This document shows, piece after piece, positions 4,208-50,909 of a DNA stretch of 51,064 nt. Below the pieces are notes generated by a model, which was not told the DNA's origin, ran no database searches, and worked only from the letters and a program-made list of their open reading frames with translations. The stretch's first letter is position 1. Each line of letters starts with the position of its first letter. The DNA comes from Gemmatimonadales bacterium. Lineage in GTDB: Bacteria > Gemmatimonadota > Gemmatimonadetes > Gemmatimonadales > GWC2-71-9. The position numbers and the translations under genes are program-made. The stretch is from NCBI GenBank assembly GCA_035712665.1, contig DASTAN010000151.1, positions 1 through 51,064 on the forward strand, written 5' to 3'.

Positions 4208-4214
4208 CCGCTGC

Positions 4215-4297
4215 GGAGATCGGCGATCGGCGATCCGAGATCGGAGGTCCCGTGTCGCCTGTCCCCTCTGATCTCCGATCTCTGATCTCGGATCTCC
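4215..4297. repeat. Heptamer-array hairpin R3
   Basis: GGAGATCGGCGATCGGCGATCCGAGATCGGAG (4215-4246) faces CTCTGATCTCCGATCTCTGATCTCGGATCTCC (4266-4297). Confidence 0.9.
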
Positions 4298-10931: not shown

Positions 10932-11010
10932 GGTGAGGGGTAAGGAGTGAGGGGTAAGGGGGGAACGGTAATCCCGGAGCCCCCTTACCCCTCACCCCTC
11001 ACCCCTCACC
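10932..11010. repeat. Heptamer-array hairpin R6
   Basis: GGTGAGGGGTAAGGAGTGAGGGGTAAGGGGGG (10932-10963) faces CCCCTTACCCCTCACCCCTCACCCCTCACC (10981-11010). It occupies most of the divergent ddpX/greA intergenic region. Confidence 0.9.
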
Positions 11011-11991: not shown

Positions 11992-13638
11992 ATGAGCACA
12001 TTCCCGTCCCTCGGCCTCGCGCCCGCCCTCTGCGACGCGCTGGCCACCCTCGGCTACGAAGAACCAACCCCGATCCAGGCCGAGGCGATCCCGGCGCTGC
12101 TCGCCGGGCGCGACCTCCTCGGTCAGGCGGCCACCGGCACCGGCAAGACCGCCGCCTTCGCCCTCCCGCTGCTGCAGCGCCTCGGCACCGGCAGCGTGGC
12201 ACCGTCGCGCCCCACCATCCTCGTCCTCGCCCCGACCCGCGAGCTCGCGATGCAGGTCGCCGAGGCGTTCCACCGCTACGGCCGCGCGATGGGTTCGTCG
12301 GTGGTCCCGATCTACGGGGGGCAGGCGTTCGACCAGCAGATCCGCATCCTCCGCCGCGGCGTGCACGTCGTCGTCGCGACGCCGGGACGCGCGCTCGATC
12401 ACCTGCGTCGCGGCACCCTCGATCTCGCCAACCTCGGTGCGATCGTCCTCGACGAGGCCGACGAGATGCTCGACATGGGCTTCGCCGACGAGATCGAGGC
12501 GATCCTCGATGCGGCGCCAGAGGTGCGACAGACGGCACTCTTCTCCGCGACGATGGCGCCCCGGATCGCGAAGATCGCCGAGCGGCACCTGAGCGATCCG
12601 GTGCGCATCAGCATCGCGCGCGCCGCCCCGATCGCGGGCGAGGCGCCGAAGGTCCGCCAGACGGCGTACCTCATCGCGCGGCCGCACAAGGTCGCAGCCC
12701 TGGGGCGCATCCTCGACCTCGAGTCGCCGGAGCTGGCGATCGTCTTCTGCCGCACGCGCACCGAAGTCGACACCCTCACCGAGACGCTGGGCGGGCACGG
12801 CTATCGTGCCGAGGCGCTCCACGGCGGGATGACGCAGGACGCGCGCGATCGCGTGATGAAGCGCACGCGCGCGGGCAACGTCGACCTCCTGATCGCGACC
12901 GACGTCGCCGCGCGCGGGCTCGACATCGAGCAGCTCTCGCACGTGGTGAACTACAACGTCCCCGAGTCGCCGGCCGCCTATGTCCATCGCATCGGACGCA
13001 CCGGGCGAGCGGGGCGTGAGGGCGTCGCGATCACGCTGGTCGAGCCGCGCGAGCATCGCCTGCTCCGGAACATCGAGGCGGCGACGCGCTCGCGCGTGAC
13101 GATGGCCCAGCTGCCCACGGTGATGGACGTGCAGGCGAAGCGCCTTGGCCTCACCACCGAGGCGGTGCGCGAGGCGATCGCGGCGGGTGGCACCGAACGG
13201 TACCGCGCGGTGGTCGAGGCGCTCACCGACGCGCACGACCTGATGGAAATCGCGATGGCGGCGCTGCAGCTCGCCCACGAACGGGAGCACGGCACCGGCA
13301 CCGACGAGGACGAGGCGATCGACCTCGCCCCGCCGGCGGCACCGAAGGGCGACAAGGCGAAGGGCGCGCCGCGCCCGAAGCGGAACGCCGGCTTCTCGCG
13401 GATCTACATCGGGGCGGGCCGCAAGAACAACCTGCGCCCGGCCGACCTGGTCGGGGCGATCGTCAACGAGGCGAAGGTGCCGGCGAAGGAGATCGGCACG
13501 ATCGAGATCACCGATCGCTTCGCGCTGGTCGAGCTGCCGGAGGAGAAGGTGAACGGCGTGATCGCGGCGTTGCGTGCCAGCACCATCAAGGGGAAGCGGC
13601 TCACCGTGCGGCGTGACCTCGCCGGCGGTTCGCGCTAG
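11992..13638 (+). CDS. DEAD-box ATP-dependent RNA helicase (DeaD/CsdA-like with DbpA-type C-terminal RNA-binding domain)
   Basis: Shows the Q-motif, ATGTGKTAAF, DEAD (LDEADEML), SAT and HRIGRTGRAG. The C-terminus reads FSRIYIGAGRKNNLRPADLVGAI...IEITDRFALVELPEE. Confidence 0.93.
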   Translation: MSTFPSLGLAPALCDALATLGYEEPTPIQAEAIPALLAGRDLLGQAATGTGKTAAFALPLLQRLGTGSVAPSRPTILVLAPTRELAMQVAEAFHRYGRAMGSSVVPIYGGQAFDQQIRILRRGVHVVVATPGRALDHLRRGTLDLANLGAIVLDEADEMLDMGFADEIEAILDAAPEVRQTALFSATMAPRIAKIAERHLSDPVRISIARAAPIAGEAPKVRQTAYLIARPHKVAALGRILDLESPELAIVFCRTRTEVDTLTETLGGHGYRAEALHGGMTQDARDRVMKRTRAGNVDLLIATDVAARGLDIEQLSHVVNYNVPESPAAYVHRIGRTGRAGREGVAITLVEPREHRLLRNIEAATRSRVTMAQLPTVMDVQAKRLGLTTEAVREAIAAGGTERYRAVVEALTDAHDLMEIAMAALQLAHEREHGTGTDEDEAIDLAPPAAPKGDKAKGAPRPKRNAGFSRIYIGAGRKNNLRPADLVGAIVNEAKVPAKEIGTIEITDRFALVELPEEKVNGVIAALRASTIKGKRLTVRRDLAGGSR

Positions 13639-21615: not shown

Positions 21616-21713
21616 TAGGCCTTAGGCCTTAGGCCTTTAGCCTTAGGCCTTAGGCCTTAGGCCTTGAGCCTTGAGCCCTGAGGCCTGAGGCCTGAGCCCT
21701 GAGCCCTGAGACC
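21616..21713. repeat. 14-unit tandem heptamer array R8 (TAGGCCT drifting to TGAGCCC)
   Basis: Units read TAGGCCT x3, TTAGCCT, TAGGCCT x3, TGAGCCT, TGAGCCC, TGAGGCC x2, TGAGCCC x2, TGAGACC. It starts 5 nt after the S15 peptidase stop. Confidence 0.95.
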
Positions 21714-21734
21714 CTACGCCTTCCCGGAGTGTCA

Positions 21735-22193: not shown

Positions 22194-22221
22194 CTCACGA
22201 CTCACGACCCACGACTCACAT
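22194..22221. repeat. Short heptamer tract R9 (CTCACGA x2, CCCACGA, CTCACAT)
   Basis: Reverse orientation of the GTGAGTC family. It lies between the convergent DinB and DUF1905 genes and overlaps the DUF1905 stop. Confidence 0.75.
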
Positions 22222-32510: not shown

Positions 32511-32564
32511 CCCCCTCACCCCTGACCCCTCACCCCTGACCCCGATCACCATTGACCGTTCACT
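32511..32564. repeat. Heptamer tract R10 (CCCCTCA/CCCCTGA then CACC(A/G)TT units)
   Basis: CCCCCTCACCCCTGACCCCTCACCCCTGACCCCGATCACCATTGACCGTTCAC. It lies in the divergent region between the amidohydrolase fusion and the TSCPD-like ORF. Confidence 0.8.
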
Positions 32565-35841: not shown

Positions 35842-35899
35842 GGCGATCGGCGATCGGAGATCCGAGGGCGCACCCTCCGATCTCCGATCGCCGATCGCC
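35842..35899. repeat. Heptamer-array hairpin R12
   Basis: GGCGATCGGCGATCGGAGATCCGAGGG - CGCA - CCCTCCGATCTCCGATCGCCGATCGCC, a near-perfect palindrome. Confidence 0.92.
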
Positions 35900-35903
35900 C
35901 ATC

Positions 35904-36383
35904 TCAGCCGCCCGGCACCTGCCTGCGCATGACAGTCAGTCGTGCGGGCCGCTTCAATTTGTGCGGATCGGGAAACGGCCGCTCCCCCACCGTCGTGAAG
36001 CCGAATTTCGCGTAGAATCCCGGGAGCTCCGATCGGAGATCGACGACCTCGATCTCCTCCTCCACGCAGCCCTGCTCGTGCGCCCAGACATCGATCGCCG
36101 CGAGCAGGGTCCGGGCGTGTCCCTTCCCCTGCGCCGCCGGATCCACCGAGAGCATCCCGAACCAGCACCGCCCCTCACGAACCGCCACGTGAACAGCGGC
36201 CGCGAGCCGGCCCGGCGCGTGATCCACCACGAGGAACGCCGATTGCGGGGCCGAGCAACGGGCGGTGACATCCGCCGCCGAGGTCCGGTCGCCGTTGATG
36301 AAGAAATCCTCGACGCGGTAGGCCGCGTTGACGACGCGGACGACCTCGGCGATATCGTCAGGAGTGGCGTGGCGTGCGTGCAC
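35904..36383 (-). CDS. GNAT-family N-acetyltransferase
   Basis: 159 aa with a GTG start. Contains ...WFGMLSVDPAAQGKGHARTLLAAI... (acetyl-CoA binding Q/RxxGxG/A-like) and ...FYAKFGF. Confidence 0.8.
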   Translation of the reverse strand: MHARHATPDDIAEVVRVVNAAYRVEDFFINGDRTSAADVTARCSAPQSAFLVVDHAPGRLAAAVHVAVREGRCWFGMLSVDPAAQGKGHARTLLAAIDVWAHEQGCVEEEIEVVDLRSELPGFYAKFGFTTVGERPFPDPHKLKRPARLTVMRRQVPGG

Positions 36384-38895: not shown

Positions 38896-39387
38896 CTACT
38901 GCGTCGGCGCCATCGCGCGGATCTGCGCGACGACCGAGTCGGCGAGCGCGTTCGGAATCGGGATCGTGAGGTTGTACTGCACGATCTTCCATCCGGCCTC
39001 GTCCTTCCGGAGCACGCCGGTCCCGCGGGTCTCGCCGTAGTTCGCGTTCTGCAGCCGCTCGTCGAACCACGCGGTGTGCCCGTCGGCATCAAGGAAGACG
39101 TGGCGCTCGGTCTTGTCGTACGTCCATCCCTTGGACTGGCTGGCGTAGCCGCGGAACTGGTCCACCGTCCACCGCTCGGTGGCGTCGGTGCCGAAGAAGA
39201 CCGCGTCGGTCGCGAAGAGATCGAAGTAGCGGTCGAAGTCCCCGGCCGCGGCCAGGGTGTGCAGCGCGGTGAGGACGCTGTCCACCGCGGCGGTCTCGGT
39301 CGCGGTGTCGACGGCGGGCGGTTCGGCCGCGGGGGCGCACGCCCCGACCAGCGAGGCGGCGAGCAGCAGGGCAACGTGACGGCGCAT
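38896..39387 (-). CDS. NTF2/SnoaL-like (DUF4440-type) lipoprotein
   Basis: 163 aa from ATG 39387, reading MRRHVALLLAASLVGAC (lipobox). Contains ...AAGDFDRYFDLFATDAVFFGTDATERW...GWKIVQYNLTIPIPN, an NTF2-fold pattern. Its start overlaps the stop of the LLM gene. Confidence 0.55.
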   Translation of the reverse strand: MRRHVALLLAASLVGACAPAAEPPAVDTATETAAVDSVLTALHTLAAAGDFDRYFDLFATDAVFFGTDATERWTVDQFRGYASQSKGWTYDKTERHVFLDADGHTAWFDERLQNANYGETRGTGVLRKDEAGWKIVQYNLTIPIPNALADSVVAQIRAMAPTQ

Positions 39388-40433
39388 CAGGGACTCCCGG
39401 CGGTGGTGGGATCGAGGAGGGCGTGCACGCGCGGGATCACCGCGGTGCCATAGAGGTCGATGCAGCGCAGCAACGCGTCGTGCGGCAGCGTCCCGGCGCT
39501 GTACTTGAGGTCGAACCGTTGGACGCCGAGCGCCCCGACCGTCGCCGCGATGCGCTGCGCGACCGTGTCGGGGGAGCCGACGTAGAGCGATCCGTGCTCG
39601 CACTCGTGATCGAACTGGCCACGGGACATCGGTGCCCAGCCGCGCTCGGCACCGATGCGGGCCATCATCTCGCGGAACGGCGGCCAGAAGGTCTCGCGCG
39701 CCGCGGCATCGGTGTCGGCGACGAAGCCGGGCGAATGCATCCCCACCGGCAGCACCGGGCGCCCGAACTCGCCGAGCGAGCGGTGATAGAGCTCGACATA
39801 GGGCACGAACCGCCGGGGATCGCCGCCGATGATCGCCAACATCAGCCCGAGGCCGTGGCGCGCGGCACGCACCACCGACTTCGGGGAGCCGCCGACACCG
39901 ACCCAGGTGGTGAGCGGCGTGCGCTCGACGGTGGGATAGACGCGCTGCGCGACGAGGGGGCCGCGCGTCTGGCCCCGCCACGTCACCGCTTCCTGGGTCA
40001 GCAACTGCACGAGAAGCTCGAGCCGCTCCTCGAAGAGGAGCTCGTATGCCTCGAGCGGCAGCCCGAAGAGCGGGAACGACTCGGTGAACGAGCCGCGGCC
40101 GACGATGATCTCCGCGCGGCCGTTCGCGACGGCATCGAGCGTCGCGAACCGCTGGAAGACACGTACCGGGTCATCGGATGACAGCACCGTCACCGCGCTG
40201 CCGAGCCGGATCCGCTCGGTGCGCGCCGCGATCGCCGCGAGCACGACCTCCGGCGCGGAGATCGCGAAATCGGCGCGGTGATGCTCGCCGACCCCGAAGA
40301 ACGCGACACCGACGCGGTCGGCCAGTTCCGCCTCGGCGATCACGTCGCGGATGACCTGCGCGTGCGACCGGACGGTGCCATCCGCATCGCGGGTGATGTC
40401 ACCGAAGGTGTCGAGGCCGAGCTGGAGCGCCAT
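39387..40433 (-). CDS. LLM-class (luciferase-like) flavin-dependent oxidoreductase
   Basis: 348 aa from ATG 40433, reading MALQLGLDTFGDITRD.... Contains ...FGVGEHH... and ...LLAIIGG.... The 51 codons upstream in ORF 39387-40586 are translated heptamer repeat (LTTHDSR). Confidence 0.8.
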   Translation of the reverse strand: MALQLGLDTFGDITRDADGTVRSHAQVIRDVIAEAELADRVGVAFFGVGEHHRADFAISAPEVVLAAIAARTERIRLGSAVTVLSSDDPVRVFQRFATLDAVANGRAEIIVGRGSFTESFPLFGLPLEAYELLFEERLELLVQLLTQEAVTWRGQTRGPLVAQRVYPTVERTPLTTWVGVGGSPKSVVRAARHGLGLMLAIIGGDPRRFVPYVELYHRSLGEFGRPVLPVGMHSPGFVADTDAAARETFWPPFREMMARIGAERGWAPMSRGQFDHECEHGSLYVGSPDTVAQRIAATVGALGVQRFDLKYSAGTLPHDALLRCIDLYGTAVIPRVHALLDPTTAGSP

Positions 40434-40436
40434 GAA

Positions 40437-40489
40437 AGTCGTGAGTCGTGAGTCGTGAGTCGTGAGTCGTGAGTCGTGAGTCGTCAGAC
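40437..40489. repeat. Tandem heptamer array R13: (GTGAGTC) x6 perfect
   Basis: Six identical units at 40441-40482 with degenerate flanks. It begins 4 nt upstream of the LLM start codon and lies about 95 nt downstream of the regulator stop. Confidence 0.95.
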
Positions 40490-40582
40490 GTGCTGGTCGA
40501 GGACGATCTGCCACCCTTGGGCCGGGTCCCCGGCGAACGGGGCGGAGCCGAGCGCCTCGCAGAACTGGCGCGACGCGACAGG

Positions 40583-42637
40583 TCATCCCGGTGATGGTGC
40601 TTCAGCCTCGAGCATCTGGGCAGTGGCGTGATCGACCATGGCGAGATCCTCGGGCGTGTGGGCCCACCGCGCCGCGAGATCGAGCCAGTGGAGCGCCTCG
40701 GCGTTCGCCCCGACGGTCCGTGCCGCCTCCATCGCACGCATCGCGTGCGTGTAGGCGAGACCGGCCTCCTCGCCACGATCAGCATGGTAGGCCACCTCAC
40801 CGGCGTCCGGCGACTGCCGGTTGATCCGCGCCACTTCCACCGTCGCAAGCGCGATCGCTCGATGGACCTCGCGACGTCGGGCGGCCCCCACGGACGCCAG
40901 CACGACCGACGCGATGAGCGGATGCGCACAGACGTACCGGCTGTCAGCCTCGCCGACCAGGCAGCGTTGCCGCAGGGCATCGCAGACCATTGCGACTCGG
41001 AGGCGTGACTGGCCGTGGACGAGCGAGAGCACATCGGCACCGCAGCCGTGATCGTGGGCCGCGATGGTCGTCAGCAAGGCCTGCTGCTCGCGCGGGAGCC
41101 GCCCGATGCGTTGGGCAATGGCATCGTGCACCGACGGCGGAACCGCACAGCCCAGGACGTCGGCATCCTCGCGATCCGAGAGCCGCCACTCCCCGGTCGC
41201 GGCATCGATGGAGATGCAGCCCTCGGCGAGCCACGTCTTGAGCAGCTCGACGACGTAGAACGGGTTGCCGTGCGTGATTTCGTGCACGCGCCGGGCCAGG
41301 CGATGTGCTGCCGACGCGGAGCGCATGCGCCCGAGGTCTCGGACGATCTCCTCGACATCGGCCACCGCCAGCGGTGCCAGCTCGGCGCGCACGGCCCCGG
41401 GCAGGGTCCGCAGCGCGCGCGCGACGCGGAGCCCCGGTGCATCGTGTTCCTCGTGCCCCAGCGCCAGGGCCACGACCCAGAGCACCGGTGCGCGATCCAT
41501 GCGGCGCACGAGGTAGTGCAGCATCGCCGTGGATTCGGGGTCGCACCAATGGAAGTCGTCGATCACCACCAGAAGTGGTTGGTCGTCGGCGATCGCGGTC
41601 AGCACGTCGGCCACGGCCTCTTCGAGAATGGCAAAGCCCGGTTCGCCCTCATGGACGGCGAGACTCGGGAAGCGCCGACGCACGTCAGGGAGCACCCGCG
41701 CGATGATGCCGAGTGCGATCGGGTCTGCCCCCGCCACACCGGGACACGCGAGCGCCCCGCGCAACAATTCCAGCATCAACCCGATCTGCGTGGTGCGCTC
41801 GGACTCGTAGGCCTGCGTGCGAAGCACCTGACCATGCTGCGTCGACACCCACCGTGCGAAGTCGTCGGTCAGGCGCGTCTTTCCCGTGCCGATCTCGCCC
41901 TCGATGACCGCGACCCGTGGCGTGCCGTGCGTGACCCGATCCCATCCCTGGAGCAGCGTCTCCCACACGGGCGCGCGTCCGGCAAGCCCGGCCTTGAAGT
42001 CCGGTGGCACCGCCTGCCAGCGATCGCCGTCCGATGCAGGGGGCGTTGGCTGCGCAGCGAGGAGATTCGCCTCGGCCATGAGCCGAGCGGCCTCGGTCGG
42101 GTCGGAGGCGACCAGCATCCACCGTTCCCCGATTGCGAGAGCCTGCCGCCAGTCCCCGCGTGCAATCGCCTCGGCACCCGCCGCGGCCGCCACCCGACCG
42201 TACCGGGCGATCAAGTCGCCTCGAACGGCATCGGCCCAGTCGTCGAAGTCCGGACAGTGTCGTGGAGTGAACCCTTCGAGGAACCGTCCCGCCTCGATCG
42301 CGACGGCCGCGGACGGACTGGTCTTGGCGAATTCGAGAAACTGCCGGGCGTCACACGACACCCCGTCCACGAGACCGACACGCGCCCGCTCGATCTGGAT
42401 GTGGTCACCGAGATGCTGGCGCAGCGTCTTCAGCGCCTGGCGAAGGGAGGCGTTCGCCTTGCCATCGGGTGACTCGCCCCACAGCAACGATGCCAAATGC
42501 TCACGGGAATGGAATCCCGGTTCCATCGCGAGGTACGCGACCAGCGCCATCGCCTTCGTCGGCAAGGCCACGGGGGACGATGGGTCCGGGATGTGAATGG
42601 CCGGCGGACCACAGAGCGTGAGCTGGATCGTGGGCAT
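40583..42637 (-). CDS. SARP/AfsR-like transcriptional regulator (OmpR-type wHTH + BTAD + P-loop NTPase + helical C-terminal domain)
   Basis: The N-terminus ...KAMALVAYLAMEPGFHSREHLASLLWGE...LRQALKTLRQHLG... is a wHTH, followed by a BTAD-like helical region. The Walker A motif is GEIGTGKTRL and Walker B-like is LLVVIDDFHW. It is divergent from the peptide genes. Confidence 0.8.
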   Translation of the reverse strand: MPTIQLTLCGPPAIHIPDPSSPVALPTKAMALVAYLAMEPGFHSREHLASLLWGESPDGKANASLRQALKTLRQHLGDHIQIERARVGLVDGVSCDARQFLEFAKTSPSAAVAIEAGRFLEGFTPRHCPDFDDWADAVRGDLIARYGRVAAAAGAEAIARGDWRQALAIGERWMLVASDPTEAARLMAEANLLAAQPTPPASDGDRWQAVPPDFKAGLAGRAPVWETLLQGWDRVTHGTPRVAVIEGEIGTGKTRLTDDFARWVSTQHGQVLRTQAYESERTTQIGLMLELLRGALACPGVAGADPIALGIIARVLPDVRRRFPSLAVHEGEPGFAILEEAVADVLTAIADDQPLLVVIDDFHWCDPESTAMLHYLVRRMDRAPVLWVVALALGHEEHDAPGLRVARALRTLPGAVRAELAPLAVADVEEIVRDLGRMRSASAAHRLARRVHEITHGNPFYVVELLKTWLAEGCISIDAATGEWRLSDREDADVLGCAVPPSVHDAIAQRIGRLPREQQALLTTIAAHDHGCGADVLSLVHGQSRLRVAMVCDALRQRCLVGEADSRYVCAHPLIASVVLASVGAARRREVHRAIALATVEVARINRQSPDAGEVAYHADRGEEAGLAYTHAMRAMEAARTVGANAEALHWLDLAARWAHTPEDLAMVDHATAQMLEAEAPSPG

Positions 42638-42672
42638 GCCTGATCGGGGGAGAGGAAGACATAGGTTAGCGC

Positions 42673-42713
42673 GTTTTCACGATCTCCGGAAGGGTTTTCA
42701 CGATTCTTTCACG
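42673..42713 (+). promoter_or_regulatory. Three direct TTTCACG heptamer repeats (starts 42675, 42696, 42707; spacing 21 and 11 nt) in the divergent promoter region
   Basis: GTTTTCACGAT occurs twice (42673-42683 and 42694-42704), plus TTTCACG at 42707-42713. The phasing of one and two helical turns matches the way SARP regulators bind direct heptamers. Confidence 0.5.
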
Positions 42714-42783
42714 GCCCCTCCCCATCGTTGGCGCAGTTGGTTCGCTGGTGCCACAGCCCATACCCCTCGCAAGGAGCATCGCC

Positions 42784-42936
42784 ATGTCGTCCAAGAACAC
42801 CCCGATCGTCAAGATCACGCTGAACAAGCAGCAGCAGGAGCAGGTCAAGCAGGAGATCGGGAAGGACGCCGAGGCGATCGAGCTGCCGGTGAGCGAGCTC
42901 GAGGAGCGTATCGTCCCGCGCTTCTTCGGCATCTGA
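42784..42936 (+). CDS. Small peptide P1 (50 aa), candidate leader-containing precursor
   Basis: MSSKNTPIVKITLNKQQQEQVKQEIGKDAEAIELPVSELEERIVPRFFGI. AAGGAG lies 7 nt upstream of the ATG. It is a paralogue of P2. Confidence 0.7.
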   Translation: MSSKNTPIVKITLNKQQQEQVKQEIGKDAEAIELPVSELEERIVPRFFGI

Positions 42937-43001
42937 CACCGTCGGCCGCCGATTCCACGATCCCAGAACGCACCATCACCACCCCTGCAAGGAGCCCGAC
43001 G

Positions 43002-43160
43002 ATGTCCTCCAAGAACAATCAGGTCGTCAAGATCACGCTCAGCCAGGCCCAGAAGGATCAGATCAAGCAGGAGACCGGCAAGGACGCCGAGGCGATCGAG
43101 CTGCAGGTAAGTGAGCTCGAGGAGCGCATCGTCCCGCGCTGGTTCGGCAGCATGATGTAG
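43002..43160 (+). CDS. Small peptide P2 (52 aa), candidate leader-containing precursor
   Basis: MSSKNNQVVKITLSQAQKDQIKQETGKDAEAIELQVSELEERIVPRWFGSMM. AAGGAG lies 7 nt upstream of the ATG. It is hidden in spurious ORF 42597-43160. Confidence 0.7.
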   Translation: MSSKNNQVVKITLSQAQKDQIKQETGKDAEAIELQVSELEERIVPRWFGSMM

Positions 43161-43165
43161 TCGAC

Positions 43166-43224
43166 CCGCGACCGACACCGGTCGCGGACGAGGCCGGCTG
43201 GGGCACTGCCCTGGCCGGCCTCGT
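43166..43224 (+). terminator. Two tandem hairpins after the peptide genes (candidate attenuator/partial terminator)
   Basis: Hairpin 1: CCGCGACCG-ACAC-CGGTCGCGG (43166-43187). Hairpin 2: ACGAGGCCGGC ... GCCGGCCTCGT (43188-43224), with inner GGGCA/TGCCC pairing, followed by GTGTCGTGTGG. Confidence 0.5.
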
Positions 43225-43300
43225 GTCGTGTGGCCAATTGCGCATGGCCGCAGGGTGATGCAATTTCGAGCATCTCTCCTTCCTTGACCAGCCCATCCTC

Positions 43301-45142
43301 GTGACAGCTCCCCTTCCCGACGAGTCCTCCCGACTCCGTCGCCTGCGGCAGGTCTCGGTCGCGCTGTTTGCGGGCCTCGACCAGACACGTGCCGTCAGCA
43401 CCGCACTCGAGGGCGCGCGGGAGCTGCTCGGCGCGGATGGCGCCTCGTTCTGGGCCCGGGAGGGGCAGGCGCTGACCTGCCAGCTGGCCCACGGCGCCGA
43501 CAGCGAGGCGCTCCTCGGGACCACGTGGCCCGCCGTGGTGCTGCTCACGCCGGACGTGGCGGGGCTCGTGCTCGTCACGCCGCTCGTGATCGATGACACC
43601 GAGGTCGGTGCGCTGCGCGTCACCCGAGGCGCAGACGAGTCCGCTCAGCCCTTCTCGACAACCGACGCCGTCCTCCTTCAGGACCTCGCAGACAGCCTGT
43701 CGGCAGCGCTCGCGACGGCGATCGCGGCGGAGGCGATGGCCGGGCCTGCCCCGCCGCAGGACTTGACGCTCGTGCTCCAGATGAGCCAGGAGATCGGTTC
43801 CTCGCTCGACCTGGACCGGGTGTGCAAGACCGTGGTGAACCTCGCCGCGCGGGCGGTCTCGTTCGATCGCGGGGCGGTCGCCCTGTACGACAACGGGCGC
43901 TGCGAAGTCCGGGCCGTGGCCGGCAGTGACGTGCACGATGCGGCCTCGCCCGCGATGCAGGACCTTGCGGTGCGCGCGGGATGGGCCGCCGGTGTCGGCA
44001 CGCGATTCTACCTGTCGGATCGGCACGCGCCGCGAACCGATGCGGAGCGGATCTTCCTCCAGATCTTCGCGCAGGACCTCGAGACCGCCGGCGTCGAAAG
44101 CGGGCTGTACCTCCCGCTCCGGGATGATGAGGGCGTCGTCGGGATCCTCGTCTTCGAGGCGGAGCGCGCGGATTTCGTCACCGAGGCGCAGCAGGAACTG
44201 GTGACGATCCTCGCCAACCAGACAACCGTGGCGATCCGGAACGCCCAGCTCTATGCGCGCGTGCCGATGGCGGATGCGCTGAGCTCCCTGACCGTGAAGC
44301 GGCAGCAGTTCCTCGCGATCCCTCGTCGCAAGCGACGCCTGGCCGGCGGCCTCGCGCTGGTGGTGCTGGCGTTGTTGTCATTGGTGCGCTGGCCGCTGCG
44401 CGTCCCGGCGGTGGCGCCGACCTTCCGGCCGGTGCGACAGGCCGCCGTGCGCCCGGCTGTCCCTGGCGTGGTGGAGGAGGTCTTCGTGCGCGAGGGCAGC
44501 ATGGTCGCGGCAGGTGCGCCCGTCGCGCGGTTGCGCGATCTGGAGGCACGGGCCACCCGCGCGGCGTTGGCGGCCGACATCGCCGCGGCCGAGCGGGCCG
44601 CGTCGCTCGCCGCCGCCCGGCAGGATGCCGCGAGCGAGCGCCTGCAGCGGCTGCGGGCCGCGACACTTCGCGAGGAACTGGCGGTCGAGACCGCGCGGGC
44701 CGAGCAGTTGGTGCTGCGCGCCCCGATCGCCGGGATGGTCCTCACGCCCCGCCCGGAGGAGCGCGTCGGGGCGGGCGTGGCCCCGGGCGAGACGATCATG
44801 TCGCTCGGACAGCTCGATTCGCTGGATCTCGACTTCGGCGTGGCGCAGCACGAGGTCGATCGGGTAAGCATCGGTGCCACGGTCCGCCTGCGCGTGGATG
44901 CCCTCCCCTCGCGAACCTTCACCGGGACCGTGCATCGCGTCGGTGCGATGGCGACGATGCACGGCACGGAGCCGCTCTTCCCGATCCTCGCACGCATCGC
45001 CAACCCGGAGGGGCATCTCCGGCCTGGCATGGCACCGCACGCACGCGTGCTCACCGCCCCGATGTCCGTCCTCGGACGGGCCGTGCGCACGCCGTGGCGT
45101 CGACTGCAGCTCTTCTGGTGGAGGATCTGGTCATGGGCTTGA
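43301..45142 (+). CDS. GAF-GAF-TM-HlyD fusion protein (cytoplasmic tandem GAF domains, one TM helix, periplasmic membrane-fusion/HlyD-type domain)
   Basis: 613 aa with a GTG start. GAF-like segments include ...LLGADGASFWAREGQ...IDDTEVGALRV... and ...SLDLDRVCKTVVNLAARAVSFDRGAVALYD...LYLPLRDDEGVVGILVFEA.... The TM helix is LAGGLALVVLALLSLV. The HlyD part is ...VVEEVFVREGSMVAAGAPVARL...coiled coil...LRAPIAGMV...GTVHRV.... Confidence 0.75.
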   Translation: MTAPLPDESSRLRRLRQVSVALFAGLDQTRAVSTALEGARELLGADGASFWAREGQALTCQLAHGADSEALLGTTWPAVVLLTPDVAGLVLVTPLVIDDTEVGALRVTRGADESAQPFSTTDAVLLQDLADSLSAALATAIAAEAMAGPAPPQDLTLVLQMSQEIGSSLDLDRVCKTVVNLAARAVSFDRGAVALYDNGRCEVRAVAGSDVHDAASPAMQDLAVRAGWAAGVGTRFYLSDRHAPRTDAERIFLQIFAQDLETAGVESGLYLPLRDDEGVVGILVFEAERADFVTEAQQELVTILANQTTVAIRNAQLYARVPMADALSSLTVKRQQFLAIPRRKRRLAGGLALVVLALLSLVRWPLRVPAVAPTFRPVRQAAVRPAVPGVVEEVFVREGSMVAAGAPVARLRDLEARATRAALAADIAAAERAASLAAARQDAASERLQRLRAATLREELAVETARAEQLVLRAPIAGMVLTPRPEERVGAGVAPGETIMSLGQLDSLDLDFGVAQHEVDRVSIGATVRLRVDALPSRTFTGTVHRVGAMATMHGTEPLFPILARIANPEGHLRPGMAPHARVLTAPMSVLGRAVRTPWRRLQLFWWRIWSWA

Positions 45143-46116
45143 GGCTGTTCGCCCCGTGGGGTGCCGTGTGCGTCGTCCTTGCCACCCCGATCCTGGCGTG
45201 CGGCGGCACCCCGCCGACGCCGGACGCGGCGGCGCAATCCGCGGACACCGCGCCATTCCAGGCCGAATCAGCCACGACGGAGGTCGGGCTCGCCTTGCCG
45301 GCGCAGGCCTACGTGGAGCACGATGCGGTGATCGCCGCCCGATCGTCGGGGGTGGTCGAATCGTTGTTCGTCGACATCGGCAGTCCGGTCGAGGCCGGCG
45401 CGCGCCTCGCCCAGATCGAGCAGGCGGATCAACGCATCGAACTGGCGCGCGCGGAAGCGGCGCGCGACCAGGGGGCGCGCACCGTGGCCCGCGCCCGTGC
45501 GCTTCGGGACGCGCAAGGCATCAGCGCCGCCGAGGCGGAGGAGATCGAGTTCGCCTTCCGACGCGCGGACCTCGAGGTGCAGCGCGCCCGCCGGGCGATC
45601 GAACTGACCCGCATCGTGGCGCCCTTCGCGGGCCGGGTCGTGGCGCGCTACGTCCAGCCCGGACGCCTCGTGAGCGCTGGCGACACGTTGTTCCGCATCG
45701 CCGAGGCGGAGCCGCTGCTCGCCCGGGTCCGGGTGCCCGAGGCCGCCGCCCGCGGCGTGCGCGTGGGAACGGCCATCGAGGCCGTCACGGAGCGCGGCGA
45801 CCGCATCACCGGATCGGTGCAGACCGTGGCCCCGGCGCTCGACGCGGCGAGCGGCACGCGAGAGGTGATCGTCCGGCTGGGCCGGTCCGCCGCCCTGATG
45901 CCGGGCTCCGCGATCTCGGTGCTGGTGGGGCGCGAATCGCGCCGAGTCCTGGCGGTTCCCGCCGAGGCGATCAGTGCCGACGGCTTCGTGCTGGTGCGCA
46001 ACGGCGACCGGACGGTGATGCGCGCCGTGGTGCTGGGCCAGCGGCTGGGGGACGGGCGAGTCGAGGTCATCAGCGGCGTGCACGCCGGCGAGCGCCTCGC
46101 CCGGCCCGCACGGTAG
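45133..46116 (+). CDS. Membrane-fusion (efflux adaptor, HlyD/RND-MFP family) lipoprotein
   Basis: Within ORF 45094-46116. ATG 45133 follows GGAGGA and overlaps the upstream gene by 10 nt. Reads MGLRLFAPWGAVCVVLATPILAC (lipobox). Contains ...GVVESLFVDIGSPVEAGARLAQIE...coiled coil...IVAPFAGRVVARYV...GSVQTVAPALDAASGTREV.... Confidence 0.8.
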   Translation: MGLRLFAPWGAVCVVLATPILACGGTPPTPDAAAQSADTAPFQAESATTEVGLALPAQAYVEHDAVIAARSSGVVESLFVDIGSPVEAGARLAQIEQADQRIELARAEAARDQGARTVARARALRDAQGISAAEAEEIEFAFRRADLEVQRARRAIELTRIVAPFAGRVVARYVQPGRLVSAGDTLFRIAEAEPLLARVRVPEAAARGVRVGTAIEAVTERGDRITGSVQTVAPALDAASGTREVIVRLGRSAALMPGSAISVLVGRESRRVLAVPAEAISADGFVLVRNGDRTVMRAVVLGQRLGDGRVEVISGVHAGERLARPAR

Positions 46117-46122
46117 CCCTCG

Positions 46123-48177
46123 GTGATGCGCGGACCAACCTTGGTGCCCGGGGTGGTGCTCATCGAGCAGAACTACCGCGACCAGCTGACGTTCGTGCTG
46201 AAGGATCCCCAAACCCAGAAGTACTACCGCTTTCGACCGGCCGAGGCCGAGATCATCCGCACCTTCGACGGCAGCCGCACCGTCGAGGAGATCGTGCAGC
46301 ACCTTGCCGACCGCGGACGCGCCCTCTCGACGGCCACCATCGAGGGGTTCGCCCGCACGCTGTCGCGCCTCGGGCTGCTGGAGCGCACGCTCGCGGAGCG
46401 CACCGAGCACCAGCTCGAGCGGTTGCGCACCGAGCGCCGGCAACAGCGCTCGCTCTTCCGCGGCGAGTGGCTGCGCATGCGGTGGGGCTTCACCGGAGCC
46501 AACGTCTTTTTCGACCGATGGATGCCCGCCGTCCGCTGGTGCTTCACGCCCGCGTTCGTGGCGGGCTCGCTGCTGCTCTTCCTGGCCTATGCGTGGATCA
46601 TCGCGAGCCAGTGGTCCGACTTCCAGGCGGCTGTCGCGGCCACGTTCGCGCCGGCGGTCTTCTCCTGGGGCACCGTCGGCATGCTGGTCGCCACCCTGCT
46701 GGTGCTCACGCTGATCCACGAACTGGGCCACGGCTTCGCGTGCAAGCACTTCGGCGGCGAGGTACACGAGCTTGGCTTCATGCTGCTCTACTTCACGCCG
46801 GCGTTCTACTGCAACGTGAACGATGCGTGGAGTTTCCCCGCCCTCCGCTCCCGCCTGTGGGTCACGCTCGCCGGCACCTGGATCGAGCTGACGGTCTCCG
46901 CATTGGCCGCGATCGTCTGGTTCGTGGTCCACCCCGACACGGCGCTGTCGCAATGGGCTCTTGCGGCGATGCTGATCGGCGGCTTCATGGCGATCGTCAC
47001 CAACGGCAACCCCTTGTTGCCGCTCGATGGATACTTCGCTCTCTCGGACTATCTGGAGATGCCGAACCTGCGGCATCGGGCGAGCGCGCACGTGACGTGG
47101 TGGGTTCGGCGGCACGTCCTGAAGCTTGACCTGCCGGAGCCGGACGTGGCGCCGAACGAGCGCCGCACCCTGCTCCTGTATGGCTTCGCCGCGATGGCGT
47201 ACATCACCGGGCTCGCGGTCCTCATCGGCAGCAAGGTGATCCATTGGGTGGCGGCGATGGCCGGATTCGCGGTGGCCGCGCTCGTCCTGCTCGTGGTGCT
47301 GGCCACGATCCTCCCTCGCATGACGGCGTTCTGGCGAGGTTCGCTGGCGGCACTGCGTGCGCAGGTCGGCGGAACCCGGTGGCGGCAGGGGCGGCGCTGG
47401 CTCGGCATCACCGGCGGCCTCACGCTGCTCATCTCGGCAGTGCTCCCGTGGCGACTGCAAACTTTCGGCGAGTTCGTGGTGGCACCGCAGCGGTCGGCCG
47501 TCCTGCTCGCCCCCGATAGCGGGGTGGTGGTAGCGGTATACCCGACCACCGGCACCTCTGTGTCGGCCGGCACACCGGTGCTGCGTCTGCTCGATTTCGG
47601 GCTGGTGCAGGCCTCGGCTAGCCAGCGCCGCCTCGGGGACTCCCTCGGTCTGGAGGCGCTCGTGGCACGAGCACGGGCCCTGCCGGGCATCGAGGCGGTG
47701 CGGCAGGCGGAGGCCGCATCCGCCGGGGCGAACCTCGCACGGACGAACCTCCGCCGTGACCAAGGCGTCGTTCGTGCACCGTTCGACGGGACAGTGATCA
47801 CAACGCGACCCGAGGAGCTTCTCGGGCGACAGGTCGCCCCCGGTGACACGCTGCTGGTCATCGCCGACCTGATGGGCCTCGAGGCGCGGATCAGCCTCCG
47901 GTCGGCCGGAGCCTCCCAGATCGTCCCAGGCGGTCGCGTGCGGCTGATCTCGGCGCAGGCGGCCGACCACCCCGTGGAAGGAGTCGTTCGCGAGGTGGCC
48001 CCCGCGGGCATCGGCGCCGCGGGCGGGGCGGTCGAGGTCCGGATGACCCTTGCCGACGATGCGCCGCTTCGGGCGGGAGCCACGGGGATGGCGCGCGTGG
48101 AGTGGGGGCGGTCGACCCTCCTGGGCTCCCTCTGGTGGGCGGTGCGCTCCCGCATTCGCAACGACCTGCTGCTCTAG
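46123..48177 (+). CDS. Tri-partite protein: PqqD-like (RRE-type) N-terminal domain + M50 site-2-protease membrane core + C-terminal HlyD-like domain
   Basis: 684 aa. The N-terminus LTFVLKDPQTQKYYRFRPAEAEIIRTFDGSRTVEEIVQHLADRG follows the PqqD pattern. HELGH is at 46717-46731 and NPLLPLDG at 47008-47031, which are the two M50 signature motifs within TM helices. The C-terminal part has ...VVVAVYPTTGTSVSAGTPVLRL...VRAPFDGTVI...GVVREVAP... (biotinyl/lipoyl-like and barrel segments of HlyD proteins). Confidence 0.75.
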   Translation: MMRGPTLVPGVVLIEQNYRDQLTFVLKDPQTQKYYRFRPAEAEIIRTFDGSRTVEEIVQHLADRGRALSTATIEGFARTLSRLGLLERTLAERTEHQLERLRTERRQQRSLFRGEWLRMRWGFTGANVFFDRWMPAVRWCFTPAFVAGSLLLFLAYAWIIASQWSDFQAAVAATFAPAVFSWGTVGMLVATLLVLTLIHELGHGFACKHFGGEVHELGFMLLYFTPAFYCNVNDAWSFPALRSRLWVTLAGTWIELTVSALAAIVWFVVHPDTALSQWALAAMLIGGFMAIVTNGNPLLPLDGYFALSDYLEMPNLRHRASAHVTWWVRRHVLKLDLPEPDVAPNERRTLLLYGFAAMAYITGLAVLIGSKVIHWVAAMAGFAVAALVLLVVLATILPRMTAFWRGSLAALRAQVGGTRWRQGRRWLGITGGLTLLISAVLPWRLQTFGEFVVAPQRSAVLLAPDSGVVVAVYPTTGTSVSAGTPVLRLLDFGLVQASASQRRLGDSLGLEALVARARALPGIEAVRQAEAASAGANLARTNLRRDQGVVRAPFDGTVITTRPEELLGRQVAPGDTLLVIADLMGLEARISLRSAGASQIVPGGRVRLISAQAADHPVEGVVREVAPAGIGAAGGAVEVRMTLADDAPLRAGATGMARVEWGRSTLLGSLWWAVRSRIRNDLLL

Positions 48178-48190
48178 GCCGCCCTGTTAA

Positions 48191-50506
<2,316 letters not shown>

Positions 50507-50508
50507 GC

Positions 50509-50609
50509 CGTGAGTCGTGAGTCGTGAGTCGTGCGTCGTGAGTGAACGGTGAACGGGAGCGATCCTGTTCACCGTTCGCTTTTGGCGGTGCACCGCCTCA
50601 CCCCTCACC
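50509..50609. repeat. Composite heptamer region R14 (GTGAGTC units, GTGAACG hairpin, CCCCTCA units)
   Basis: GTGAGTC x3 plus GTGCGTC (50510-50537), the GTGAACGGTGAACGGG / CCTGTTCACCGTTCGC hairpin, then CCTCACCCCTCACC (50596-50609), which overlaps the tautomerase stop. Confidence 0.9.
50542..50584 (+). terminator. Rho-independent terminator of katG, built from GTGAACG heptamers
   Basis: GTGAACGGTGAACGGG-AGCGAT-CCTGTTCACCGTTCGC followed by TTTT (50580-50583). Confidence 0.75.
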
Positions 50610-50813: not shown

Positions 50814-50827
50814 AGAGACCTCGACAA

Positions 50828-50909
50828 AGGGTGAAGGGTGAAGGGTGGAGGGTGGAGAGCGAAGCGTGAAGGGTGAACGGCAATGAGCGGCAGCTGGTTC
50901 CTGTTCACC
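50828..50909. repeat. Heptamer tract R15 (GGGTGAA/GGGTGGA units, then GTGAACG...TGTTCAC)
   Basis: AGGGTGAAGGGTGAAGGGTGGAGGGTGGAGAGCGAAGCGTGAAGGGTGAACGG ... CCTGTTCACC. Confidence 0.8.

Follow-up and report, generated by a model that had tools for sequence, protein, structure and literature searches.

A candidate peptide maturation and export cassette built around a protease-adaptor fusion in Gemmatimonadales

In a soil Gemmatimonadales bacterium of the phylum Gemmatimonadota (assembly GCA_035712665.1, contig DASTAN010000151.1), we describe a gene cassette that appears to cut and export very short ribosomal peptides. The stretch analysed here, 51,064 nt of this contig, is referred to as the window. 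The cassette is composed, in order, of a SARP/STAND regulator, one to three small peptide genes (two in the window), a GAF-GAF-TM-HlyD protein (TM, transmembrane helix), a lipoprotein adaptor, and an RRE-M50-HlyD fusion in which a PqqD-like recognition domain (RRE) precedes a site-2 protease (S2P) and a further adaptor; we call the last three the triad (Table 1). On comparative sequence data we lean towards a single functional chain, running from the regulator through leader docking and M50 cleavage to adaptor- and TolC-mediated export of unmodified oligopeptides, which would probably be signals. The core of what the initial annotation of this locus proposed, leader recognition by the RRE, cleavage by the M50 domain, export of a short peptide and SARP-type control, is supported by these comparisons, the export and the function of the peptides being what we infer.

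If this is how the cassette works, the SARP/STAND regulator would bind three nTTCACG heptads standing in for a -35 element and switch on both precursor genes, while a hairpin after the second precursor gene would curb read-through into the machinery genes and so leave the precursors in excess. The leaders, which end in ELEERI(A/V)P, would dock on the RRE of the fusion in the cytoplasm, and an extra N-terminal leader module might dock on the GAF domains of the GAF-HlyD protein. The M50 active site, at the cytoplasmic face of the membrane, would then cut right after the proline and release RFFGI and RWFGSMM. Two anchored HlyD modules and the lipoprotein adaptor would build a periplasmic conduit that docks onto an unlinked TolC-family channel, with the protease domain sitting where an ABC, RND or MFS pump normally would. 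The freed peptides would most likely be species-specific extracellular signals.

The cassette is conserved as a unit. In a synteny survey, six window proteins were compared by tblastn with 80 Gemmatimonadota loci, complemented by a leader hidden Markov model (HMM), and counts were made on the 57 loci with enough flanking sequence. The triad is colinear in 57/57 and a divergent adjacent regulator is present in 50/57. The idea that small open reading frames (ORFs) with an ELEERI(V/A)P leader adjoin the triad in other genomes is borne out in 54 of the 57, with one to three leader peptides at each. These peptide genes accompany the triad even where their place differs: in Longimicrobiales they follow the M50 gene downstream, at locus L018 they are on the other strand, and at locus L079 they lie beyond the regulator. 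Relatives of the fusion are nearly all from Gemmatimonadales metagenome-assembled genomes (MAGs), the best with 56% identity in the genome collection and up to 65% on metagenome contigs, and with at least 80 species-level genomes carrying it, the cassette is a core-like feature of Gemmatimonadales.

Precursor peptides and the protease predicted to cut them

Every ORF that the initial annotation had named was recovered at its coordinates, including the tight packing of the triad genes, in which 43301-45142 and 45133-46116 overlap by 10 nt and a 6-nt gap leads to 46123-48177. Strong Shine-Dalgarno sequences before the peptide ORFs were also confirmed (AAGGAG at 42771-42776 and 42989-42994, 7 nt from each ATG). 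The two peptide genes share 83% DNA identity over 168 nt, an identity that stops at the C-terminal tail, or core. Both products have the leader of approximately 44-45 residues that is shared across the family (residues 1-45 in the window peptides) and that closes with the motif ELEERI(A/V)P. Compared with locus L282, a metagenome relative at 88% DNA identity, the peptide genes differ at 8 codons synonymously and at 3 non-synonymously, with both cores identical, so we take the small ORFs to be genuine genes whose core sequence, judged by these substitutions, is under purifying selection between close relatives. Among 5.8 billion database proteins, a search with the peptide finds 6 relatives, none of them named.

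For leader and core statistics we used 95 homologues; for precursor peptide 1, 93 homologues were found. The leader consensus is M-x6-VRIxLTPEQKxxVxxxTGKDAEAxELxVxELEERIAP, and its last eight residues are exactly ELEERIAP in 69 of the 95, both window peptides having ELEERIVP. After the proline, the tails diverge completely: they are 3-22 residues long (median 7), 90/95 are unique, and not one position is kept across them. Their net charge is positive and they are hydrophobic, with K or R at position 2 in 44/95 and a hydrophobic residue at position 3, and cysteine accounts for 2 of their 703 residues. The aromatic tail foreseen in the initial annotation holds within the clade of the window, where the cores are RFFGI, RWFGSMM, RRMMGI and RPFMEI, but not family-wide, where cores are hypervariable, short and cationic or hydrophobic.

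Some precursors carry their core in several copies, and because such multi-copy cores occur, the tail is likely to be the product. A Gemmatimonadota precursor (L109 8966-9220) has the core RKAMP four times followed by RKSF, and an acidobacterial one (L112 8255-8887, minus strand) has ARKAPF/ARKAPL repeats behind the same N-terminal leader module. Orphan precursors were also observed, these being additional peptide genes of the leader type that lie several kb away from the triad (L056 4687-4887 and 15438-15746) or on other contigs (JBGOSS010000017.1 and JBGOSS010000019.1; L168, L198, L232), presumably served by the same machinery.

The N-terminal part of the leader (xVRIxLTPEQKxxVxxATGK) is an extra module that co-occurs with the triad and is absent where the M50 protein has no HlyD fusion or GAF partner. 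This distribution suggests, by inference only, that the module docks on the GAF domains. A fold search with 41 leader members against Pfam (E <= 10) and a profile search of the PDB returned only matches of the DUF1192 and centrin N-terminus type, and a ribbon-helix-helix (ParD/CopG-like) fold for the stretch VRIELTPEQK..ATGK was rejected, having low-complexity matches only.

A second precursor family was seen beside RRE-M50 genes that have neither a GAF-HlyD partner nor a HlyD fusion. Its members stand in tandem copies and combine a short leader, MxxLxLxxEELEQRIAP (xLxLxxEELEQRIAP), with 25-45-residue cores rich in Gly, Ser, Asn and Pro, for example GSSPGFGPSNNGNPGNQVSNGAKPQPSGGH. Its hosts are Acidobacteriota, Verrucomicrobiota, Limnocylindrales, Bacteroidota and some Gemmatimonadota (L113 3927-5181, L149 5293-5940, L147 5486-5852, L124, L158, L120, L115, L160, L146).

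The fusion itself is predicted to consist of a cytoplasmic RRE (residues 12-82), approximately seven transmembrane helices (140-441) and a periplasmic MacA/AcrA-like adaptor (442-665). Its catalytic motifs, HELGH at 46717-46731 and NPLLPLDG at 47008-47031, match the site-2 protease signature, HExxH in one transmembrane helix followed in a later one by NxxPxxxxDG for the third zinc ligand. Residues H199, E200 and H203 of the first motif and N296, P297, D302 and G303 of the second (NPLxPLDG) are invariant in alignments of 16 close and 23 distant homologues. In an AlphaFold model of mean predicted local distance difference test (pLDDT) 78.8, residues 12-82 adopt the beta3-alpha3 RRE fold (strands 12-18, 21-27 and 34-37; helices 39-47, 54-63 and 70-82). 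Pfam HlyD_3 matches the fusion at 59.5 bits, and Foldseek with residues 442-665 retrieves MacA, AcrA, MexA and ZneB at E ~1e-12. A PDB sequence search with the RRE-M50 part gave no match. One side observation concerns the end of this gene in L282, which lacks 424 nt (~12765-12773, corresponding to window 48074-48497), so that the 3' end of M50-HlyD is fused to katG in an 827-aa product; this is either a deletion or an assembly artefact.

The best NCBIfam match of the fusion is NF041824, the daptide intramembrane metalloprotease, at 201.6 bits and E = 2e-59 over residues 16-405 (RRE plus protease), a score that lies below the 300-bit equivalog cutoff. With NF058609, the YydH/LiaK family, it scores 45 bits for a cutoff of 225. 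In daptide precursors, the motif ELExMEAP stands just ahead of the core and is read by RRE domains, one of them fused to the site-2 protease MpaP, with cleavage following ELExxxxx whatever the P1 and P1' residues (Ren et al., bioRxiv 10.1101/2023.03.08.531785; 10.1101/2025.07.11.664356). By sequence, the leader motif and the protease in the window are homologous to this experimentally defined recognition and cleavage pair (MpaP/DapP), and because of that homology, cleavage is predicted after Pro45, giving RFFGI and RWFGSMM. By this analogy we regard leader-dependent cleavage by the M50 fusion as very likely.

The initial annotation could not place the architecture in any described class; its leader motif and RRE-M50 part can now be related to daptides, and the combination as a whole was not found described in the searchable literature. 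The two systems share an N-terminal RRE, predicted in the case of the window, fused to a site-2 protease, ELExxxAP just before the core, and several tandem precursor genes per locus. They differ in most other respects. Daptides have an invariant C-terminal Thr, the substrate of oxidative decarboxylation, whereas the window peptides end in Ile and Met and a C-terminal Thr is found in 3/95 homologues. None of DapB (DUF-RRE), DapC (Fe-dependent alcohol dehydrogenase-type decarboxylase), DapD (aminotransferase) and DapM (methyltransferase) is encoded at 39.4-50.5 kb or conserved in the 80 loci. ABC transporters co-occur with daptide clusters and none is linked to the window cassette, whose protease is instead fused to a periplasmic HlyD adaptor and accompanied by two further adaptors and cytoplasmic GAF domains. 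Cores of 3-22 aa contrast with daptide aliphatic helices of ~20-30 aa, and diderm hosts with Actinomycetota and Bacillota. From its gene content the locus is thus not a daptide cluster, since the C-terminal Thr, DapB/C/D/M and the ABC transporters are missing and the protease falls below the equivalog cutoff.

Other M50 intramembrane proteases also yield short bioactive peptides, namely Eep for enterococcal pheromones and YydH/LiaK for epipeptides. Eep, however, acts on the signal peptides of lipoproteins, epipeptide production depends on a radical-SAM epimerase together with an ABC exporter, and neither system has the RRE-ELE leader pair or a HlyD fusion.

Adaptor modules, the missing pump and the spread of the triad

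The two other triad proteins are of the kinds originally described. The GAF-GAF-TM-HlyD protein has two Pfam GAF domains, HlyD_D23/HlyD_3 and one transmembrane helix by hydropathy (347-365), and its AlphaFold model (pLDDT 82.9) shows a periplasmic adaptor whose alpha-hairpin has 26+26 residues and whose C-terminal helix is rich in Trp. GAF1 (43322-43738) is the most variable globular domain of the cassette, with a mean pairwise identity of 0.35, and GAF2 (43757-44257) is the most conserved, with 0.69. The lipoprotein membrane-fusion adaptor matches TIGR01730 (RND_mfp) at 149.3 bits, above the cutoff of 94.9, as well as Pfam HlyD_3 and HlyD_D23, and it begins with hydrophobic residues 5-23 and the lipobox ILAC (Cys23). 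By hydropathy, the RRE, the M50 active site and the GAF domains are predicted to be cytoplasmic and all three adaptor modules periplasmic.

Both membrane-anchored adaptors are modelled with 26+26-residue hairpins (fusion 492-546; GAF-HlyD 414-468), and inspection of its sequence suggests a hairpin of similar length in the lipoprotein adaptor. The equal lengths in these models are compatible with co-assembly into one tunnel. A conserved Trp-rich end helix is also found in both anchored adaptors (LFWWRIWSW and LWWAVRSRI).

What would energise such a tunnel is the unusual part of this system. Neither the cassette nor the window ORFs tested (39.4-50.5 kb scanned) encode an ABC, RND or MFS pump, and clustering of flanking ORFs at the 80 Gemmatimonadota loci, together with two annotated contigs, revealed no further conserved neighbour, be it a pump, an outer-membrane factor or a modifying enzyme. 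A conserved pump is likewise missing from triad loci of Acidobacteriota, Alteromonadaceae and Chlamydiales. An MFS gene near the acidobacterial locus L131 was considered as the missing pump and rejected, as it is not conserved at other acidobacterial loci. The initial annotation had remarked that neither a pump nor a known modifying enzyme is encoded between 40.5 and 48.3 kb, and none of either kind is conserved in any lineage examined. It had also noted the lack of a TolC-like channel; there is no TolC-family gene among the window ORFs tested, but three loci outside Gemmatimonadota have one in the operon. These TolC-family outer-membrane efflux protein (OEP) genes (145-186 bits) lie within triad operons that contain no pump (L141 1811-7979, L126 4498-10656, L114 334-6336), in the cultured Algibacillus agarilyticus, an Alteromonadaceae MAG and a Chlamydiales MAG. 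No other observation speaks as strongly as the OEP in the operon for the triad being an export device that spans the envelope, with the protease as its sole polytopic inner-membrane part, and gene content of this kind shows that the missing partner would be a pump and not necessarily a channel. Considering these operons, we judge export by the triad to be fairly likely.

The three adaptor modules, with their lipoyl, alpha-hairpin and beta-barrel domains, resemble those of MacAB-TolC, AcrAB-TolC, HlyBD-TolC and the two-adaptor system TriABC-OpmH. Unlike tripartite pumps and type I secretion systems, the triad has no linked ABC, RND or MFS transporter, and its only polytopic inner-membrane component is the M50 protease. 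For an adaptor that carries a cytoplasmic domain, HlyD offers a precedent, its cytoplasmic N-terminus binding the substrate. The triad can also be compared with ComAB, LcnCD and CvaAB, the exporters of double-glycine peptides, which combine leader recognition, cleavage tied to export and a HlyD-family partner, and whose substrates include peptide pheromones and bacteriocins. The window differs in having a zinc M50 peptidase in place of a C39 cysteine peptidase, no ABC domain, no GG/GA motif, and a protease fused to the adaptor and not to the pump. In line with this, Pfam and NCBIfam found no C39 peptidase or ABC domain in the cassette, and the leaders end in AP or VP, not GG or GA.

An exhaustive search with the fusion yielded ~2,300 clusters (50% identity) at E <= 1e-30 from many phyla. 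The triad occurs in many Acidobacteriota and in Alteromonadaceae, Bdellovibrionota/Oligoflexia, Myxococcota and one Chlamydiales MAG, and is not specific to Gemmatimonadota. In both Alteromonadaceae loci a large ADGSGS-type (Tcp10_C-like) repeat protein, which could be a different cargo, is encoded just upstream of the triad. Acidobacterial triads have a different regulator gene, a conserved sigma54-dependent activator, and this gene adjoins a small ORF that is convergent with the M50-HlyD gene. These small ORFs start with M(T/S)IEKKSLIS.L.T.KKA and continue with tandem units of 5-6 residues (AAVQK x9, QVGLSK x9, GTLAK x10, NLGGK x7, GKLGTH x8).

Regulation and surroundings of the cassette

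The regulator had been described as a winged helix-turn-helix (wHTH), BTAD and P-loop protein. The ATPase domain is clear (Pfam AAA_16, 70.2 bits) and the wHTH is weak (Trans_reg_C, 24.4 bits for a cutoff of 26.2); no BTAD hit was obtained for the window copy, whereas 13/16 orthologues have one, alongside AAA_16 in 16/16 and Trans_reg_C in 9/16. The C-terminal 280 aa match no family, and a PDB sequence search with the regulator returned no match.

Upstream of the first peptide gene, three TTTCACG heptads are spaced by 21 + 11 nt and followed 9 nt on by the -10-like hexamer CATCGT. The same arrangement, nTTCACG at 0/+21-22/+32-33 followed by yAnnnT, is conserved at most Gemmatimonadales loci and kept in L282, and a degenerate heptad, GATTCCACGAT, stands upstream of peptide 2 at 42951-42961. 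SARP target promoters have direct heptamers in 11-nt phase that end ~8 nt before the -10 element. Judged from their arrangement, the conserved heptads are a putative SARP-type operator in the classical SARP promoter layout. The cassette resembles the AfsR-type SARP and AfsK kinase pair in the order wHTH, BTAD, STAND ATPase and helical C-terminus, in 11-nt-phased heptads ending ~9 nt before a -10-like hexamer, and in the short Ser/Thr kinase genes that adjoin it in 38 related loci. It differs in its host, Gemmatimonadota and not an actinomycete, in an ATPase that is AAA_16 and not NB-ARC, and in the absence of a kinase gene anywhere in the window. In these 38 Gemmatimonadota loci, one or two short kinase genes (~275 aa, kinase domain only) lie directly after M50-HlyD (30 loci) or beside the regulator (8), for example at L015 10050-10883, L016 7067-7891, and L036 1248-2126 and 10056-10859, with ~35 further loci.

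The two stable hairpins reported after the peptide genes are real features of the predicted RNA: the segment 43162-43228 folds with a minimum free energy of -58.5 kcal/mol (z = -6.1), and 0/200 shuffles are as stable. Immediately behind the last peptide gene, 43/47 loci have a strong hairpin that exceeds the coding-region control, and in many loci a U-tract follows. An intrinsic-terminator scan of the window found no canonical terminator after the peptide genes, the hairpins there having no U-tract. A hairpin after the precursor gene is the usual means of holding the precursor transcript above that of the machinery.

Table 1. Positions of cassette features in the window, and of repeat ORFs at acidobacterial loci
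Feature	Position	Strand	Basis
Large SARP-type regulator: OmpR-like wHTH, BTAD, AAA_16 (STAND) ATPase, ~280-aa helical C-terminal domain	40583-42637	-	Pfam, orthologues
Putative operator, three direct TTTCACG heptads	42675-42713 (42675-42681, 42696-42702, 42707-42713)	+	Cross-locus conservation
-10-like CATCGT	42723-42728	+	9 nt downstream of third heptad
Precursor peptide 1, 50 aa, leader ends ELEERIVP	42784-42936	+	Shine-Dalgarno, leader HMM E = 3e-20
Predicted core RFFGI of peptide 1	42919-42933	+	Cleavage rule from daptide papers
Precursor peptide 2, 52 aa	43002-43160	+	Shine-Dalgarno, leader HMM E = 7e-21
Predicted core RWFGSMM of peptide 2	43137-43157	+	Cleavage rule from daptide papers
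Double GC-rich hairpin after last precursor gene; likely attenuator, terminator or RNA-stabilising element	43162-43228	+	Folding
GAF-GAF-TM-HlyD protein	43301-45142	+	Pfam, AlphaFold, hydropathy
Lipoprotein periplasmic adaptor, AcrA/MacA-type membrane-fusion protein	45133-46116	+	TIGR01730, Pfam, lipobox
RRE(PqqD-like)-M50 site-2-protease-HlyD fusion	46123-48177	+	NF041824, invariant motifs, AlphaFold, Foldseek, hydropathy
Acidobacterial repeat ORFs (other loci)	L125 10035-10301(-), L131 8203-8508(-), L133 7719-8195(-), L140 8175-8606(-), also L142, L150, L154

Several neighbours and candidate identities were set aside. A luciferase-like monooxygenase gene (39387-40586, minus strand; PF00296, 164.6 bits) adjoins the 3' end of the regulator gene and is probably unrelated to the cassette; it was rejected as a tailoring enzyme, a homologue being present in none of the related loci. 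The downstream katG was rejected as a cassette member, its synteny being limited to the closest relatives, and an anti-phage defence system was rejected as the identity of the cassette, with 0 matches to PADLOC models among five cassette proteins. The window also has period-7 intergenic tandem arrays of differing units scattered over it, (AGTCGTG)x8, (CGTGAGT)x5, (TAGGCCT)x15, several CCCCTCA and (AAGGGTG)x7, at 40437-40492, 50509-50543, 21616-21722, 184-213, 2826-2891, 4214-4297, 10981-11010, 22194-22219, 32512-32543, 35875-35905 and 50827-50877. Two arrays of one GTGAGTC unit flank the cassette and katG on both sides. The period-7 arrays are similar to the heptameric STRR repeats found in heterocystous cyanobacteria.

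Alternative explanations and meaning for diderm soil bacteria

Several points weigh against a chain of leader docking, M50 cleavage and export through the triad. Two Pfam scores of the fusion are marginal, PqqD (PF05402) at 23.2 bits for a cutoff of 23.4 (residues 1-126) and Peptidase_M50 (PF02163) at 21.5 for a cutoff of 27.2. We consider both to be rescued by the NF041824 match, the invariant catalytic residues and the modelled RRE fold, and the PqqD-like, M50 and HlyD composition proposed for this protein stands on that basis. The NF041824 score of 201.6, under the 300-bit cutoff and covering profile positions 11-373 of 379, amounts to homology and not to equivalog status. The acidobacterial small ORFs have no ELE motif, and the link between triad and ELE leader is therefore lineage-specific. 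The M50 active site faces the cytoplasm, and S2P-family proteases are not known to translocate their products. A pump, a channel or a modifying enzyme may lie elsewhere in the genome, outside the 51-kb window. Finally, we see no evident receptor for the hypervariable peptides; the regulator does not exceed the machinery proteins in divergence, nor are its C-terminal 280 aa more variable than the rest of it.

If the peptides are released as proposed, then what they do is the least certain part of the chain, and a signalling role, although it is our first choice, has in our estimation somewhat less than an even chance on the sequence evidence. Its main competitor keeps the same machinery and makes the short cationic and hydrophobic products microcin- or bacteriocin-like antimicrobials. 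Hypervariable cores with net positive charge, several paralogous precursors at many loci and a dedicated envelope-spanning exporter would all suit such a function, and daptides, which among characterised systems are the closest relatives, act on membranes as antimicrobials or haemolysins. However, no known ribosomal bacteriocin is as short as the unmodified cores predicted here, at 3-7 residues, and the 80 loci contain no conserved immunity-like gene or self-protection ABC transporter, an absence that bears directly on the choice between signal and toxin. The accessory genes are also signal-transduction-like (SARP/STAND, Ser/Thr kinases, GAF, sigma54 activator), and we therefore regard an antimicrobial function as unlikely. 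RRNPP-type peptide quorum sensing works through a cytoplasmic TPR receptor to which the mature peptide binds after re-import; no Opp genes are linked to the cassette.

The peptides could also be true RiPPs (ribosomally synthesised and post-translationally modified peptides), with cores modified before or after cleavage by enzymes encoded elsewhere or through some activity of the GAF or M50 proteins that has gone unrecognised. RiPP pathways typically contain RRE domains, the closest homologue of the fusion comes from such a pathway, and the visible genome amounts to 51 kb, in which the luciferase-like monooxygenase adjoins the regulator. That monooxygenase is without a counterpart in related loci, though, no modifying enzyme is conserved at the 80 Gemmatimonadota loci or in other phyla, and the cores offer no handle for modification, Cys being near-absent and no Ser, Thr or C-terminal residue invariant. 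Modification of this kind seems to us improbable.

Least probable of all, and very much so, is that the conserved 44-residue leader is itself the functional molecule, a cytoplasmic regulator or adaptor that binds GAF or SARP while M50 clips the tail and the HlyD triad exports another cargo: conservation of the leader far exceeds that of the tail, the leader's N-terminal module is missing from the short leaders of M50 proteins that have no GAF/HlyD partners, the GAF domains and the RRE are both cytoplasmic, and the Alteromonadaceae repeat protein gene lies directly upstream of the triad, but a conserved leader with a hypervariable tail, tail-divergent paralogues and tandem cores is the classical signature of a tail that is the product, the cores are kept between close relatives, and the leader gives no detectable fold-family signal, leaving the ribbon-helix-helix idea unsupported.

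Returning to leader-dependent cleavage and export of unmodified peptides, the parts of the cassette are, judged by homology, of known kinds, an RRE-M50 leader peptidase, periplasmic adaptors and a SARP regulator. What appears to be new is the combination of a protease-adaptor fusion, three adaptors without a pump, and ultrashort, apparently unmodified cores. In the searchable literature, which does not cover subscription journals, no description of the triad architecture was found, and Pfam, NCBIfam and PADLOC hold no dedicated model for the architecture of the cassette. Public annotations of the large proteins read 'efflux adaptor', 'GAF domain protein' and 'putative peptide zinc metalloprotease'.

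A bolder extension, which we hold tentatively and think doubtful as a whole, is that the triad and a TolC-family channel constitute a so far unrecognised pump-less secretion machine of diderms with the protease as both its gate and its inner-membrane component, in which leader cleavage licenses entry into the adaptor tunnel and, in Gemmatimonadota, the exported species-specific linear oligopeptides of 3-10 residues feed back through the SARP/STAND regulator as peptide quorum sensing, Ser/Thr kinases also taking part in many species.

In Gram-positive bacteria, signalling by ribosomal peptides and peptide export coupled to proteolysis are textbook subjects, whereas diderm phyla offer very few known cases; for Gemmatimonadota and Acidobacteriota, both abundant in soil, the chemistry of communication between cells has hardly been characterised. 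If the favoured chain is correct, the rule "cut after ELExxxxP" would predict hundreds of natural oligopeptides straight from genomes, an envelope-spanning adaptor/TolC assembly would run without an ABC, RND or MFS motor, and the daptide leader/RRE-M50 recognition pair would extend to a far larger superfamily. If pump-less secretion and feedback through the regulator were also to hold, ribosomal-peptide quorum sensing would be widespread in Gram-negative soil phyla.

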